A DNA stretch of 64,000 bases from a virus. Taxonomy: Duplodnaviria > Heunggongvirae > Uroviricota > Caudoviricetes. Under the pieces are notes generated by a model. The model had not been told where the DNA came from, searched no databases, and saw only the letters and a program-made list of their open reading frames with translations. Location of the stretch: the IMG/VR virus record IMGVR_UViG_2778261505_000002. One strand, given 5' to 3'. A program made the position numbers and the translations under genes. This document shows, in pieces, positions 28,490 to 51,603 of the stretch. Position 1 is the first letter of the stretch. Each line of letters opens with the position of its first letter.

Positions 28490-28624
28490 ATGACTTTACA
28501 TTGTTTTTTCAAAGGGCATTGCTTTTCACTATACAGAAACAGAAATAATAATGGGGCATTCTACATATGTAGTAAATGTGGGAGGACAAAATATCTTCCA
28601 GATGTCAAATTTGAAGGTCCTTGA
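28490..28624 (+). CDS. Small zinc-ribbon-like protein (44 aa, not in ORF track)
   Basis: HCFFKGHC...YICSKCG Cys pattern; ATG follows previous stop by 2 nt. Confidence 0.3.
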   Translation: MTLHCFFKGHCFSLYRNRNNNGAFYICSKCGRTKYLPDVKFEGP

Positions 28625-28650
28625 ATGTTTGCATTAAATGGGCAATACAG

Positions 28651-29067
28651 ATGATCACAACAGACTTTTCTAAATTAAGTGATTTTGAAATTAACAGACG
28701 AGTATGTGAGGCTTTAGATATGGAGGAGTATTTCTTCATACCTGATGACGAAGCAGATTTCGATTCGGAGATCCCCACTGACGAAAGAGGTCCTGTTTGG
28801 CAGACGTCAAAAAGGGATATTAATGGCTTCCGTGCTTCAAACGGAAATTGCTTCAATCCTTGCAACAACCCGGCGGACGCAAAGCCCATTATCGTAGAGA
28901 ACAGAATTGGCATTATTCCTGCGCCAGAAAATGGATTATGGAAGGCAGCGCATAGAAAGATTGGTAACGATAATACTCCATACCATATGACTCAAAATGT
29001 AAATCCACTCCGCGCCGCCATGATTGTCTTTCTGATGATGAAAGAAAGTGAGAGTTGTACCGATTAA
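28651..29067 (+). CDS. Hypothetical protein
   Basis: Track ORF 28621..29067 starts at TTG; first ATG at 28651. Confidence 0.45.
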   Translation: MITTDFSKLSDFEINRRVCEALDMEEYFFIPDDEADFDSEIPTDERGPVWQTSKRDINGFRASNGNCFNPCNNPADAKPIIVENRIGIIPAPENGLWKAAHRKIGNDNTPYHMTQNVNPLRAAMIVFLMMKESESCTD

Positions 29068-48911: not shown

Positions 48912-49494
48912 TAGATAAGTACAAACTATTCATAAAGTGAATTGTAAGTGCTAAGATCTGATAGTTTCCAGTCGTAGACTGGAGACTCGACCTGATGGGT
49001 GGGGGTAAGCGTCACTGGCGTCAGGTTTAAAAAAAGCTCACTACCAGCGTAGAACTGGTGCCGTTTAGGTGTCGGGGAAGGGGGAACCAAAGTGAGCAGA
49101 GACAAGGGTCACTTTATGATTGTCGAGTCTGGGGTGTTTCGAGAGGTTGAATCCAGTACTCCCCTTCATAAAGTGTGGGAAGATCTCGGTTCTGGGGTGC
49201 TGTCATCCATAACTTCCCAAGTCTAAGCTGGCAGTAGACTTAGACCATAACTTTTCAGGTTATGAAACGACCAGGTTGGTGAGAGATTTTTATACTCACC
49301 TCCCTGGGAGAGTATTACCTGAAAAGACAACCTCTCACTTCGTTCGAGGTGAACTTCACTCACTTCGTTCGTTCAGTTCAGGTTTATAAAAACCTGTTCT
49401 GGGAAGTAATTTGTTTATTTTAATAATTATTAACACGCACGCGTGTGCGCACGCGCGAGGAAAAATCGGCGCGGCGCTTGATTCAGGAGTTTAT

Positions 49495-50085
49495 ATGACG
49501 ACGAAGACACCAGCCCGATCGCAAGCAAAAACTCGCAAAAAAGCCAAAAACAAAAATTCCCCCCGCACCAATCCCACAACGCCTGTCGTAGAGTTCAATC
49601 CCCAGCTTAAAACCGTGAAAATCTTTAGTGATGGCTCTTGCCTTAAAAATCCGGGTGGCCCGGGCGGTTACGGTATCGTTCTCCAGTATCGTGGTGAGGA
49701 ACGCGAGTTCTCAGATGGTTTTCATAGCACCACCAATAACCGCATGGAGATGATGGGGGCACTTATCGGGCTGGAGCGTTTGAAATATCCATGCAACGTT
49801 ATTTTGCACTCTGATAGCCAGTATCTGAAAAACGGCATGACACAGTGGATGAAATGGTGGAAACGCAATGGATGGATGACTTCTGACAAAAAACCAGTAA
49901 AGAATGTTGATCTGTGGAAGCGTCTGGATGAGGCCGCAAGTCGACATAATGTTCGCTGGAAGTGGGTTAAAGGTCACGCCGGGCATCGTGAAAATGAAAT
50001 ATGTGATCGACTCGCGAAGATCGCAGCTTTTTCAGCAGCAGATATGCCTCACAAGAAAGATATTGGTTTTGTTTATAATAAATAG
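49495..50085 (+). CDS. Ribonuclease HI with basic N-terminal extension
   Basis: Start at ATG 49495 after CAGGAG (track ORF begins 49411 inside a GC-rich palindromic tract); RNase H core IFSDGSC...[28 protein letters not shown]. Confidence 0.8.
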
Positions 50086-50522
50086 TAAGTAAGTGTTTAC
50101 CTATCATTTTAAATCATGTATCTTATCGGCGTCAGGATGACAATGTGTCGGTAAGACACAGTTCCAGGATGGAACGAGAAAGGCGGCTGGCAATCGCCAG
50201 CCGCAACTCTTTCTGACACTGGATGGAGTCCACATGGCACGTCAAACCTATTTCACTTCTGTAACTAAACGTCCTCGTTCTTTACGTCAAATTTTGGCCG
50301 AATTATTTAGCGGTCGGGTTATGTCACGCCTTGATGAACTAGAGACTACCGTTCGGTTGCTGAATGAACGTTTAGATAATCAAGCGTCAGTTGTTGCGAA
50401 CGTGGGGGCGATTGTTGCCTCTGGTTCTTCACGCGAAGCGAAAAATGCACGGCCTTTAGTGAAGGAGAAAAACAACAAGGACAGTTCGAATGGAAAATTT
50501 TCAAAGAAAGAGGCTGAAACCA

Positions 50523-50741
50523 ATGGCCTACGTTCTCATTATAGTTTCACTGGCGACGGTAGCCGTTCCAGCCGGTCAGAGCCTTTTGATGCCGGATTCA
50601 TCCATCACCACACCTTCGTCGACGACAATTACCACCACTCCAGTGGAGCGTCCTGTCACTCTGGATGGGATGGCGGTGGATGCGATACCTCAAGTTCATC
50701 CAGTTACTCAGGATCATGCTGTGACTAAGGCGGTTGTATGA
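50523..50741 (+). CDS. Small secreted/membrane protein with Thr/Pro-rich tail
   Basis: 72 aa from ATG 50523 after AGAGG; signal-like MAYVLIIVSLATVAVPA; overlaps alternative-frame ORF 50234..50728. Confidence 0.4.
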   Translation: MAYVLIIVSLATVAVPAGQSLLMPDSSITTPSSTTITTTPVERPVTLDGMAVDAIPQVHPVTQDHAVTKAVV

Positions 50742-50926
50742 ACTGGTTTTCAAATCACTTTGGAAAAATTTGGCTGGCAATTCTTGCCCTTATGGCCGCC
50801 GGTTGGGTATCGAACATTATAAAACTTGTTTGCTCTGGCGATCTCCAGTTTCAGGCTGGCATGACCTTGGCTCGTGTAGTTGGGATTTTTGTTTTTCCAG
50901 TTGGTTCGGTACTTGGTTATTTCTGA
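50738..50926 (+). CDS. Small membrane protein
   Basis: 62 aa; ATGA overlap with previous stop; two hydrophobic segments. Confidence 0.4.
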   Translation: MNWFSNHFGKIWLAILALMAAGWVSNIIKLVCSGDLQFQAGMTLARVVGIFVFPVGSVLGYF

Positions 50927-51019
50927 CGGCTGTTAGTGCATATGCATTGACCATCTCTGCGTAAGCTATTTATGTAATTAGAAAACAACTTGTTTTGACA
51001 AATAATAAAAGGAAAGCAC

Positions 51020-51445
51020 ATGTTAGGTTTCTTCAAAAAGAAAACTCGTAAAGCTGTTATCGAAGTCAAAAAAATGGAGAACCGTGATGCGGTTGAGGCC
51101 ACCGTGTGGGGCGCGTACATGATCTCCTATGCTGACGGCACATGTGACGCAAAAGAAATTGCCATTCTTGAGAAGACAATTGCAGCTCTGCCTGCGTTTT
51201 CTCCGTTTGCTGGTGAAATTGCCCAAATGAGCGCCAATATCCGTGCTCGTTACGAAGCGTCCCCTCGTTCTGCTAATGCACAGGCTATTCGTGAGCTGTC
51301 TGATATTGCGGGTACTCCAGAGGCGGTCGATGTTCTGTGTCTGTGCCTTGATATTGCCGATCAGGACGGCATTGGTGAACAAGAAGAGCAGGCACTGAAA
51401 AAGATCGCCCAGGCGCTTCAGTTGTCACTGGATGCTTATCTCTAA
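51020..51445 (+). CDS. TerB-like domain protein
   Basis: 141 aa; paired acidic helices (YADGTCDAKEIAILEK ... DIADQDGIGEQEEQALKKIAQAL) resembling the TerB fold. Confidence 0.5.
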   Translation: MLGFFKKKTRKAVIEVKKMENRDAVEATVWGAYMISYADGTCDAKEIAILEKTIAALPAFSPFAGEIAQMSANIRARYEASPRSANAQAIRELSDIAGTPEAVDVLCLCLDIADQDGIGEQEEQALKKIAQALQLSLDAYL

Positions 51446-51603
51446 TGCTTGAGAGATTCCGGCTTGTGATCGTCATTGCTCTTCTGGTGATGGCGGTGTT
51501 GGTGGATTTTACGGGAAAGATGATGTCTGTCATTTCTGATGGCGTCCTCATTGGTTTGGCGATCTACTTCGCTTATCCGTTAGTTCGTAAAGCAAAGTGT
51601 TAA
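51445..51603 (+). CDS. Small membrane protein (52 aa, not in ORF track)
   Basis: ATG overlaps TerB-like stop (TAATG); two hydrophobic helices; followed by strong terminator. Confidence 0.4.
   Translation: MLERFRLVIVIALLVMAVLVDFTGKMMSVISDGVLIGLAIYFAYPLVRKAKC

Follow-up and report, generated by a model that had tools for sequence, protein, structure and literature searches.

A reading frame of 164 codons in the phage DNA analyzed here, a stretch of 64,000 nt that we refer to as the window, shares its 3' part with a second frame open on the same strand. The question is whether the locus holds two genes, a single gene that ends earlier than its stop codon suggests, or a single gene continued by a +1 frameshift, all three of which were left open by the original prediction made from the letters alone. 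The comparison of relatives presented below argues for two genes. ORFs A and B are probably, at a rough probability of 0.8, a genuine same-strand overlapping gene pair of an SSU5-like phage-plasmid. The features of the locus, all on the plus strand, are as follows.

50096..50124, + strand: putative sigma-70-like promoter of the A/B/C unit (by inference only)
50127..50221, + strand: conserved structured 5' leader, with a long-range closing helix, three hairpins, and GGAUG motifs
50225..50228, + strand: Shine-Dalgarno GGAG of ORF A, 5 nt before its ATG, read from the sequence
50234..50728, + strand: ORF A, 164 aa, from the reading-frame list
50477..50481, + strand: Shine-Dalgarno AAGGA of ORF B, 8 nt before its ATG and within ORF A
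50490..50741, + strand: ORF B, 83 aa, +1 frame relative to A
50490..50728, + strand: candidate dual-coding overlap of A and B, 239 nt
50584..50587, + strand: T4 run; loss of 1 nt here joins A to B in the database proteins P0011, P0013, P0014, and P0018 (168 aa)
50661..50672, + strand: invariant island CTGGATGGGATG, read as SGWD in A and LDGM in B, from seven aligned clade representatives
50738..50926, + strand: ORF C, 62 aa, with two hydrophobic segments; phrog_6006, E = 2e-25

The locus and its three reading frames

The window is an SSU5/pHCM2-like phage-plasmid. Elements of this kind are common in clinical Escherichia, Klebsiella, Salmonella, Enterobacter, and Cronobacter, and the A/B locus is carried by 450-680 plasmid records. 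It is located in the early/accessory region, with rnhA on one side and a TerB/TciA-like gene on the other, and methyltransferases are also among its neighbors. Immediately 3' is a P1 tciA/tciB-like cluster (TerB plus DUF3927), which is replaced by an antirepressor or Rha-family gene at the loci of SSU5, pHCM2, and pTB212 (L085, L005, and L009). The SSU5 homologs of A and B are found at 80054-80561.

A sequencing or assembly artefact, in which a frameshift error splits or extends a single gene, was given practically no credence, as nothing beyond the caution in the original prediction speaks for it. The overlap region is 100% identical to NZ_LR882992.1, a finished E. coli plasmid, and sequencing error is excluded on that basis. 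The suggested error check was further answered by many independent finished assemblies with identical or nearly identical sequence, and the two-frame layout holds in clades at only 40-55% protein identity. The artefact reading is already refuted by these comparative data.

ORF A was found as originally described. Its layout comprises a basic N-terminus, a long helix spanning residues 17-70, a Lys-rich, disordered linker, and the His/Ser/Gly/Cys-rich tail whose composition had been remarked upon, which contains the peptide SEPFDAGFIHHHTFVDDNYHHSSGASCHSGWDGGGCDTSSSSSYSGSCCD and ends in C.SGWD..G.D.S...CCD. The AlphaFold2 model of A is mostly of low confidence (pLDDT 56), with the segment inside the overlap predicted, again with low confidence, to be disordered; the single long helix at 17-70 is consistent with the coiled-coil N-terminal half proposed earlier. 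The hydropathy maximum of A is 1.45 at residues 51-65 (Kyte-Doolittle, 15 residues), and the N-terminus has no hydrophobic segment. Outside the overlap, the dN/dS of A is about 0.2-0.3. A purine-rich GGA motif precedes A in all clades aligned, and A is annotated as hypothetical in all records inspected.

The +1 frame is open from 50466 to the stop at 50741 and has ATG codons at 50490 and 50523. The start originally assigned to B, 50523, with an overlap of about 206 nt, is probably too far downstream. The start codon at 50490 is kept in every clade, as ATG or, in L087, as GTG, and in all clades an SD-like motif (AAGGA, AGGGA, GGAG, or GGAAGG) stands 5-9 nt before it, persisting although the A residues encoded there differ among clades. 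The second Met, at 50523, is Ile or Leu in three clades. The comparison favors initiation at 50490, which would give the overlap of 239 nt.

Read from 50490, B begins with a basic n-region, MENFQRKRLKP, followed by the hydrophobic segment MAYVLIIVSLATVAV at residues 12-26 (Kyte-Doolittle 2.53, 15 residues). This bears out the description of a signal-peptide-like small protein, the order of a basic n-region and an h-region of 12-15 residues being that of a Sec-type signal. The hydrophobicity of the segment is kept across clades while its residues vary. A possible signal-peptidase site can be read as VPA↓G, and V/I-P-A/T/S then G/T is conserved there; B may be cleaved by signal peptidase, and could equally stay anchored. 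The downstream part of B is Thr/Pro-rich, with an invariant LDGM.(L/V)D motif, and B also contains the peptide LDGMAVDAIPQVHPVTQDHAVTK. In the AlphaFold2 model, which is mostly of low confidence (pLDDT 54), residues 3-24 form a helix and the rest is disordered. The RefSeq/GenBank records inspected list only A and leave B without annotation. B is nonetheless very probably a real gene, judging from the comparison with distant relatives, and would encode a small exported or membrane protein that usually goes unannotated.

A matched phrog_10411 (E = 7e-79), and residues 12-83 of B matched phrog_15659 (E = 8e-47), the profile of which begins at the second Met of B. The strength of these matches indicates that gene calls for both ORFs already exist in some phage genomes. 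All three families, phrog_6006 included, are labelled 'unknown function', and no record was found of 10411 and 15659 overlapping or being jointly constrained. A, B, and C had no significant match in Pfam, NCBIfam, or PADLOC, and PDB profile searches gave none, the best being a SlyX-like coiled coil with E = 0.16. The profile of A, when searched against 1.84 billion representatives, revealed only 20 proteins at E <= 0.001. Except for one weak match to a repeat protein (P0056), every match retrieved with it is a relative, a fragment, or a frame-fusion of A or B. Among them was no homolog of A lacking the tail or the overlap, by which the overprinting might have been dated.

The ATG of C overlaps the TGA stop of B in the sequence ATGA, 10 nt past the stop of A, which suggests translational coupling of B and C. 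Of the 79 loci scored, 66 have an ORF of 62 or 65 codons starting at the ATGA, and in the others it is absent or shorter; C is absent from clades L004, L007, and L008.

Retention of both frames and sporadic fusions

Comparing both frames in homologs had been proposed as a check, and we did so with about 80 loci, representing 52 unique sequences and roughly 10 clades. Both frames were retained across these divergent clades. In all but 2 loci, A is 158-179 aa and B, counted from the conserved Met, is 82-92 aa, with the stop of B 13 nt past that of A (10 nt in L087). Both ORFs are likewise present in the remote homologs L087, L090, and L092, where B ends 10, 13, and 13 nt, respectively, past A. 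Both frames are open even where the N-terminal part of A is only 25% identical. In the remotest homolog, the tail of A has 48% and B 42% identity versus 25% for the unique part of A, indicating slower evolution of the overlap, and the C-terminal motif ..SG.D..G.DS..SSS..CD and the Cys pattern of A persist. The invariant island has one change in L087, by which D becomes E in B and W becomes G in A.

A stop codon or frameshift resolving the overlap in homologs had been named as the observation that would count against an overlapping pair. We found only 2 of about 80 loci that carry fusions of the two frames. They bear on the possibility that a programmed +1 frameshift, or transcriptional slippage, joins the N-terminal part of A to the C-terminal part of B in a protein of about 168 aa. 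B does lie in the +1 frame of A, and the 168-aa proteins found in the databases are such fusions, several of them at the one T4 run. The fusions, however, arise at several different sites from 1-nt indels in the DNA, and the 30 best finished plasmids contain none. The clades share no conserved shift site, and the longest homopolymers, A5 and T4, are too short for transcriptional slippage. B has its own start and Shine-Dalgarno sequence in all clades, a fusion would bury its signal-like N-terminus, and the frame of A past any shift point is open against expectation. The fusions at the T4 run look like sporadic mutations or assembly errors rather than a programmed site. We consider the frameshift suggested in the original prediction highly improbable. 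A prfB-type programmed +1 frameshift was likewise rejected, there being no conserved shift site and the downstream frame, B, having a start of its own.

Selection on the two frames

Outside the overlap, variability at positions 1, 2, and 3 of the A codons is 0.86, 0.67, and 1.63. Within alignment codons 90-125, position 1 of A, which is position 3 of B, is the most variable (1.0-1.3), and position 3 of A, which is position 2 of B, the least (0.33-0.47). In this alignment the phase of variability is seen to switch from A to B at the overlap, which is evidence for B.

Synonymous divergence was compared with that of the flanks, where pS is 0.66 for the non-overlapping part of A, mostly 0.66-0.89 for rnhA, and mostly 0.64-0.83 for C. 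Inside the overlap, pS is 0.14 for A and 0.45 for B in the first half, and 0.51 and 0.52, respectively, in the second. These NG86 estimates, close to saturation between clades, show less synonymous divergence in both frames than in the flanking genes, which is evidence for both frames. In the first half, where pN/pS for A is 2.3, A shows no separate constraint at the amino-acid level; evolution is rapid in both frames over the second half (pN/pS about 0.66). We also counted the four-fold sites that underlie invariant residues: outside the overlap, 11 of 12 are variable, as compared with 1 of 7 for the A frame and 3 of 8 for the B frame within it (Fisher P = 0.0017 and 0.018, respectively; the counts are small).

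These results bear on whether A alone is a gene, the +1 ORF being a by-product of a Ser/Gly/His-rich tail that rarely makes +1 stops. All records inspected annotate only A, and the probability that the B frame is open given the A protein is 0.34-0.71 in several clades. In the window alone it is 0.71, so that the openness of B there is uninformative and the evidence for B is comparative. Were A the only gene, its synonymous positions would not be expected to be least variable in the first half of the overlap, nor 6 of 7 of its four-fold sites to be invariant. Every clade has an open B frame, even L090, where the probability given the A protein is 0.017. B is also conserved beyond what A predicts, keeps its start, Shine-Dalgarno sequence, and hydrophobic segment, and has its own PHROG family. 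We regard it as very unlikely that A is the only gene.

The converse probability, that A is open given the B protein, is 0.02-0.13 per clade. Its product over 8 clades is 4e-11 and that for B given A is 6e-6, both of which overstate significance because the clades share ancestry. In a re-encoding test, each protein was conserved beyond the prediction from the other in 10/10 clade pairs, with P <= 0.03 even when 30% codon identity by descent was allowed. When evolution was simulated forward with selection on B only, 6-17% of lineages still had an open A frame once B had reached its observed divergence. The earlier suggestion that A ends before its stop codon is thus unsupported. In every clade the A frame extends to the same point, which selection on B alone would be unlikely to produce, and invariant residues of A rest on four-fold synonymous sites of B.

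A related possibility is that only B and the N-terminal 85-95 residues of A matter, with the tail of A a coupling or spacing device devoid of protein function. Ribosomes reading the open A frame would then keep the mRNA unfolded, pass the start of B, and stop 10 nt before the ATG of C. The first half of the overlap is indeed purely B-phased, the tail is of low complexity and predicted to be disordered, and the stop of A has a fixed position relative to the stop of B and the start of C. Codon usage in the overlap also fits B better than A (+0.10 versus -0.05), and the L087 change in the invariant island is conservative in B and radical in A. However, A reaches the same end point in the clades that lack C, its C-terminal motif and Cys pattern survive in the remotest homolog, and its tail is conserved beyond what conservation of B predicts. 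In addition, the invariant residues N97, L99, G107, G144, and D146 of A sit on invariant four-fold sites of B. In our estimate, a tail without protein function is unlikely.

The reading of A and B as an overlapping gene pair is the alternative of the original prediction that drew support, from the start and Shine-Dalgarno sequence of B, the B-phased periodicity, the depressed synonymous rates, and the maintenance of both ORFs. The locus has the shared frames, maintenance beyond chance, internal start signals, and depressed synonymous change in the B phase that define an overprinted pair. Across the aligned clades, preservation and constraint of both frames over long divergence are shown, and the constraint is stronger on B, especially in its signal-like half. 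Part of the constraint at B-synonymous sites could be at the RNA level, and part could serve only to keep the ribosomes of A running to the stop beside the start of C.

Expression, comparison with known systems, and possible role

The blocks of the putative promoter are a -35 TTTACC (50096-50101) and a -10 TATCTT (50119-50124), separated by a 17-nt spacer, and are conserved in 10/10 clades aligned. They fit the consensus at only 8/12 positions, which accounts for the promoter not being listed by the promoter scan. The structured leader that follows has a minimum free energy of -53.6 kcal/mol (z = -5.1), and compensatory changes support two of its hairpins. It occurs once in the window, and may be either a regulated 5' UTR or a short RNA that ends at the hairpin at 50183-50204. 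Against the Rfam CsrB model (RF00018), the leader scored 16.8 bits (E = 0.08), below the gathering score of 71, and it shares only GGA-in-loop motifs with CsrB/RsmB-type RNA. An Rfam scan of the overlap detected no known RNA.

With A and B as an overlapping pair, a single transcript, probably from the conserved promoter and structured leader just upstream, would carry A, with B nested in its 3' third in the +1 frame behind its own Shine-Dalgarno sequence and ATG at 50490. Ribosomes would initiate independently at the two starts, and C, a small two-TM gene, would be translationally coupled to B via the ATGA. A would be cytoplasmic, with a single long helix and a Cys/His-rich, disordered tail. 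B, a small protein, would carry a Sec-type signal or a membrane anchor and would hence presumably be exported to or anchored in the envelope.

The +1 overlapped architecture led us to consider spanins, of which the 'overlapped' type is exemplified by P2 lysB/lysC, with the lambda Rz/Rz1 genes embedded, and whose inner gene is usually missed by gene callers (Kongari et al. 2018, PMC6139136). As in overlapped spanins, the gene for a small, Pro/Thr-rich, largely unstructured protein, predicted here to be exported, begins in the +1 frame within the 3' portion of a coiled-coil gene and continues beyond the stop of that outer gene. Unlike spanins, A has no N-terminal transmembrane domain and B has no lipobox; B of the window lacks Cys altogether, and the Cys of B in the L008 clade (ITIC) is not in a lipobox context. 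A and B also lie among replication and accessory genes (rnhA, TerB) rather than in a lysis cassette, and the SSU5 spanin pair has been mapped at 28585-29000 (Kongari et al. Table S4, PMC6139136). Spanin identity was rejected because of the lack of transmembrane domain and lipobox, the location, and the SSU5 spanins mapped elsewhere.

Classic overprinted same-strand pairs of small phages are phiX174 E within D and K across A/C, and MS2 L. The A/B pair resembles them in its out-of-frame sense overlap, in an inner gene with its own Shine-Dalgarno sequence and start, in the small and, for B, predicted membrane-targeted inner product, and in the depressed synonymous change in the overlap. It differs in being on a 100-kb temperate phage-plasmid with no obvious genome-size pressure, in having no indicated lysis role, and in that both A and B are orphans restricted to SSU5-like elements. 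As predicted at A/B, the overlapping segments of such pairs are disordered or of low complexity, according to reviews (PMC8227390, PMC6195259).

The P1 tciA/tciB-like cluster downstream also consists of small membrane-associated accessory genes of the 'moron / host takeover' category, but has no sequence relation to A, B, or C, and its association with them is positional and not universal. The Cys/Ser/Gly tail of A recalls microcin B17-type cores; a RiPP or microcin-like precursor was dropped as a candidate, since no modification enzymes are nearby. A is absent from the Cyrano genes reported to be expressed in lysogeny (PMC9928086).

Family, structure, and defence-system searches with A and B gave no match that indicates a function, and a literature search on the locus or its overlap in SSU5-like elements returned nothing specific. 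As a low-confidence guess, the pair might act in host takeover or exclusion, directed at the envelope and expressed during the lytic or early programme, much like the neighboring TciA/TciB-type membrane genes. A fuller proposal, which we hold to be doubtful, is that B is a lineage-restricted overprinted gene for an exported peptide acting on the host envelope, for instance in exclusion or host takeover, and that an A/B/C operon is controlled by the conserved leader, previously undescribed, which binds or titrates CsrA via GGAUG loops. If that were true, the locus would be a new regulatory and effector module of phage-plasmids and more than a missed ORF.

Standard annotation lists one gene of the two at this locus, and the second protein would add a candidate envelope-targeted effector to SSU5/pHCM2-like elements. 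The pair would also be a clean case of dual coding in a bacterial virus, with constraint measurable in both frames, and a warning that a 'hypothetical protein with a low-complexity tail' can conceal an overlapping gene. Single-base changes that separate the two products are available. T50491C together with T50524C removes both ATG codons of B and is silent in A (Asn86 and Asn97), and G50594T introduces a TGA at codon 121 of A and is silent in B (Pro35).

Arrangement of the overlapping frames

Sequence relationships identify the window as an SSU5/pHCM2-like phage-plasmid: 49400-51500 matched the E. coli plasmid NZ_LR882992.1 at 100% identity and the Escherichia phages Cyrano, PhiR41_1, and CMS-2020a at 96-99%, and the matching plasmids were nearly all of ~110 kb and typed 'non-mobilizable'.

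Local gene order around ORF A (window positions)
49495-50085: rnhA, as annotated; first in the local order
50234-50728, + strand: ORF A, after rnhA
50738-50926, + strand: ORF C, a 62-aa protein with two TM segments, after ORF A
51020-51445: TerB/TciA-like gene, after ORF C
Downstream of the TerB/TciA-like gene, in order: DUF3927/TciB-like gene, a 188-aa protein, a DUF4942 methyltransferase

Both ORFs were found as the original prediction described them. ORF B lies in the +1 frame of ORF A, with ATG codons at 50490 and 50523 and its end at 50741; its stop is 13 nt past the TAA of A, and its TGA overlaps the ATG of C (ATGA). In all annotated records inspected, including six divergent plasmids and two phages, A is a hypothetical protein, and in none of them is the +1-frame ORF annotated. 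The PHROGs families phrog_10411 and phrog_15659 correspond to A and to B residues 12-83, respectively, and a few gene calls of B exist in NCBI, ENA, and Logan. At E <= 0.001, 1.84 billion representatives yielded 20 proteins of the A family, which is found only in these elements and always adjoins rnhA.

When the A tail protein was held fixed and codons were redrawn, the +1 frame was open in 71% of resamplings; the window alone therefore carries little information on B, and the real test is comparison. Both frames were found by tblastn in ~680 plasmid records, down to 42-55% identity. The loci compared were the annotated stretches of these six plasmids and two phages, a further 75 taken from collections of genomes and viral contigs, and three more remote homologs obtained by profile search of the 1.84 billion representative proteins. 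In all but two loci, A was 158-179 aa and B 82-92 aa from a conserved Met (MENFQ, MEKFQ, or MDQFQ), and the distance between the B and A stops was exactly 13 nt despite several in-frame indels. The arrangement was alike in the remote homologs L090 and L092. Even L087, the remotest, with 25% identity in the part unique to A, kept both ORFs, with a GTG start for B and a B end 10 nt past that of A.

A Shine-Dalgarno-like motif lies 5-9 nt before the B start in every clade, where the A residues vary (KD, TG, ME, KE). The start at 50523 chosen in the original prediction gives way to 50490, the likelier start by sequence comparison, because the second Met of B is Ile or Leu in three clades. In 66 of the 79 loci scored, ORF C (62-65 aa) started at the ATGA on the B stop, but the clades to which L004, L007, and L008 belong lack it or have a truncated form; the downstream partner is thus exchangeable, while A/B is constant.

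Maintenance of and selection on both frames

The selection tests rest on ~10 related clades, near-saturation substitution counts, and simple mutation models. Given the B protein, the A frame was stop-free with P = 0.02-0.13 per clade (product over eight clades, 4e-11), and given the A protein, the B frame was open with P = 0.017-0.71 (product, 6e-6). The shared ancestry of the clades inflates the significance of these products, and a forward simulation in which selection acted on B alone was therefore added. With B identity at the observed 0.42-0.60, A was open in 6-17% of simulated lineages and the same A stop was kept in 2-7%, so that under this model an open A in each of ~10 lineages would not be expected without selection on the A frame.

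Codon-phase variability was scored as extra bases per column across seven clade representatives. Outside the overlap, A had the classic pattern (0.86/0.67/1.63 at positions 1/2/3). At alignment codons ~90-125 the pattern was reversed to the coding phase of B: variability was highest at A position 1 (1.0-1.3; B position 3) and lowest at A position 3 (0.33-0.47; B position 2). Variability was about equal at all three positions in the last third of the overlap. Nei-Gojobori proportions pooled across 10 clade pairs were as follows.

Pooled pN and pS by frame and segment
A, non-overlap: pN 0.30, pS 0.66
A, first half of overlap: pN 0.32, pS 0.14
B, first half of overlap: pN 0.20, pS 0.45
A, second half of overlap: pN 0.34, pS 0.51
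B, second half of overlap: pN 0.34, pS 0.52

The flanking genes were near saturation between deeply separated clades (pS 0.66-0.89 for rnhA and 0.64-0.83 for C), and the dip in the overlap is therefore not due to low local divergence. Four-fold sites under invariant residues varied in 11 of 12 codons outside the overlap, compared to 1 of 7 in the A frame (Fisher P = 0.0017) and 3 of 8 in the B frame (Fisher P = 0.018) within it, all small numbers. Each invariant four-fold site of B coincides with the first base of an invariant A residue (N97, L99, G107, G144, and D146). One protein was then held fixed, codons were redrawn, and the identity of the other frame was compared with this null; the observed identity was higher in 10 of 10 clade pairs in both directions, with P <= 0.03 even if 30% of the codons for shared residues were left identical by descent. 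In L087, identity was 48% in the A tail and 42% in B versus 25% in the N-terminal part of A; the overlap thus evolves more slowly than the unique part of A, the usual dual-coding signature. Codon usage within the overlap (log2 per codon: B +0.10, A -0.05, third frame -0.17) hints that B is the better adapted frame. Every relative compared has the overlap.

A-to-B fusions by single-base indels occurred in L059 and L084, two of ~80 loci, and at varied sites in several database proteins of 168 aa or similar length. Several of these indels fall at the T4 run at 50584-50587, and the A5 run at 50469-50473 was also noted. As the 30 best finished plasmids had no such fusion, assembly error or sporadic mutation is the probable origin.

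The original prediction had left three readings open. An A gene ending before its stop does not fit a frame that is kept open, and a +1 frameshift does not fit fusions made by single-base indels at varied sites; neither reading is supported by the frame-maintenance and constraint data. Sequencing error, for which a check had been advised, was excluded. Overlapping genes, the third reading, agree with the B-phase periodicity, the low four-fold variation, and the keeping of both frames across clades. Judged by these comparisons, B is a real coding frame and the dominant constraint across its signal-like first half, and the A tail is also maintained, a few of its residues being conserved as amino acids (or as nucleotides). 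A weaker explanation is that the A frame is open mainly so that ribosomes reach a stop beside the C start, and not for the tail sequence; however, clades without C retain the same A end point, B-synonymous sites beneath conserved A residues are invariant, and the C-terminal Cys/Ser/Gly/Asp motif of A is still present in the remotest homolog. By these comparisons the dual coding at this locus is real and conserved, in an overprinted pair of genes on one strand.

Mosaic forms of A, in which the N-terminal part and the overlap region come from different clades, were seen in the database proteins P0008, P0012, and P0016 and in locus L073. Recombination breakpoints therefore lie at differing places inside the A gene, and the overlap moves as a unit.

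Predicted products and likeness to known systems

The predicted structure of A has a basic N-terminus and a single confident long helix at residues 17-70 (pLDDT up to 93), with disorder elsewhere. In its tail the pattern C.SGWD..G.D.S..(C)..G.S.CCD is conserved and flanked by His residues; speculatively, this pattern might bind metal. B begins with a basic n-region and a 15-residue hydrophobic stretch (Kyte-Doolittle 2.53), followed by a conserved junction, V/I-P-A/T/S | G/T, which is a possible signal-peptidase site. Next come a Thr/Pro-rich segment that varies in length and the LDGM.(L/V)D motif, which is invariant. These features suggest that B may be exported, and the ATGA overlap that it may be coupled to C. 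C has two hydrophobic segments. The products had no functional match in Pfam, NCBIfam, PADLOC, or PDB.

Same-strand overprinted genes include phiX174 E/D and MS2 L, and the A/B locus is best classed with these in kind. Overlapping genes in phages are already familiar; A/B offers a clean, experimentally tractable dual-coding case in a clinically widespread mobile element.

The architecture is also like that of 'overlapped' two-component spanins, in which a small exported protein in the +1 frame begins within a coiled-coil protein gene and extends beyond its stop, the small gene being routinely overlooked by gene callers (PMC6139136). Unlike spanins, A lacks an N-terminal TMD and B a lipobox, and the locus is not part of a lysis cassette; the actual SSU5 spanin pair was mapped at 28585-29000 (PMC6139136), whereas the SSU5 homologs of A/B are at 80054-80561. 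A spanin identity fails on every defining feature tested and was rejected. The overlapping segments of A/B are predicted to be disordered and are compositionally biased, as reported in reviews on overlapping genes (PMC8227390, PMC6195259).

For Cyrano, the LF82 phage-plasmid, the reported set of lysogeny-expressed genes does not include A (PMC9928086), which is therefore probably part of a lytic or early program.

Upstream leader and neighboring elements

Between rnhA and ORF A, a highly stable, single-copy conserved structured RNA leader (50127-50221, + strand; MFE -53.6 kcal/mol, z = -5.1) was found in the window. A long-range helix closes it and encloses three hairpins, and compensatory changes across clades were seen in two of these. 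One GGAUG motif lies at 50135-50139, another within the hairpin at 50161-50175, in its loop region, and a third overlaps the Shine-Dalgarno sequence of A; these motifs resemble CsrA binding sites. The last hairpin (50183-50204) is terminator-like with a weak U tail. Against Rfam, the leader gave only a sub-threshold CsrB match (E = 0.08). The leader may act as a 5' UTR under CsrA control, as an attenuator, or as a short RNA. Just upstream, 50096-50124 (+ strand) contains TTTACC, a 17-nt spacer, and TATCTT, conserved in 10 of 10 clades; it fell below the threshold of a consensus promoter scan and is a plausible promoter of the A/B/C unit.

Upstream of rnhA, the 500-nt stretch 48912-49410 lacks long ORFs. 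Within it, a small ORF (49092..49226, + strand, 44 aa, GTG start) matches by position CYRAN_81, which is among the prophage genes expressed in lysogeny, at 12x local background, in the LF82 study (PMC9928086). It could encode a moron peptide or mark a non-coding RNA.
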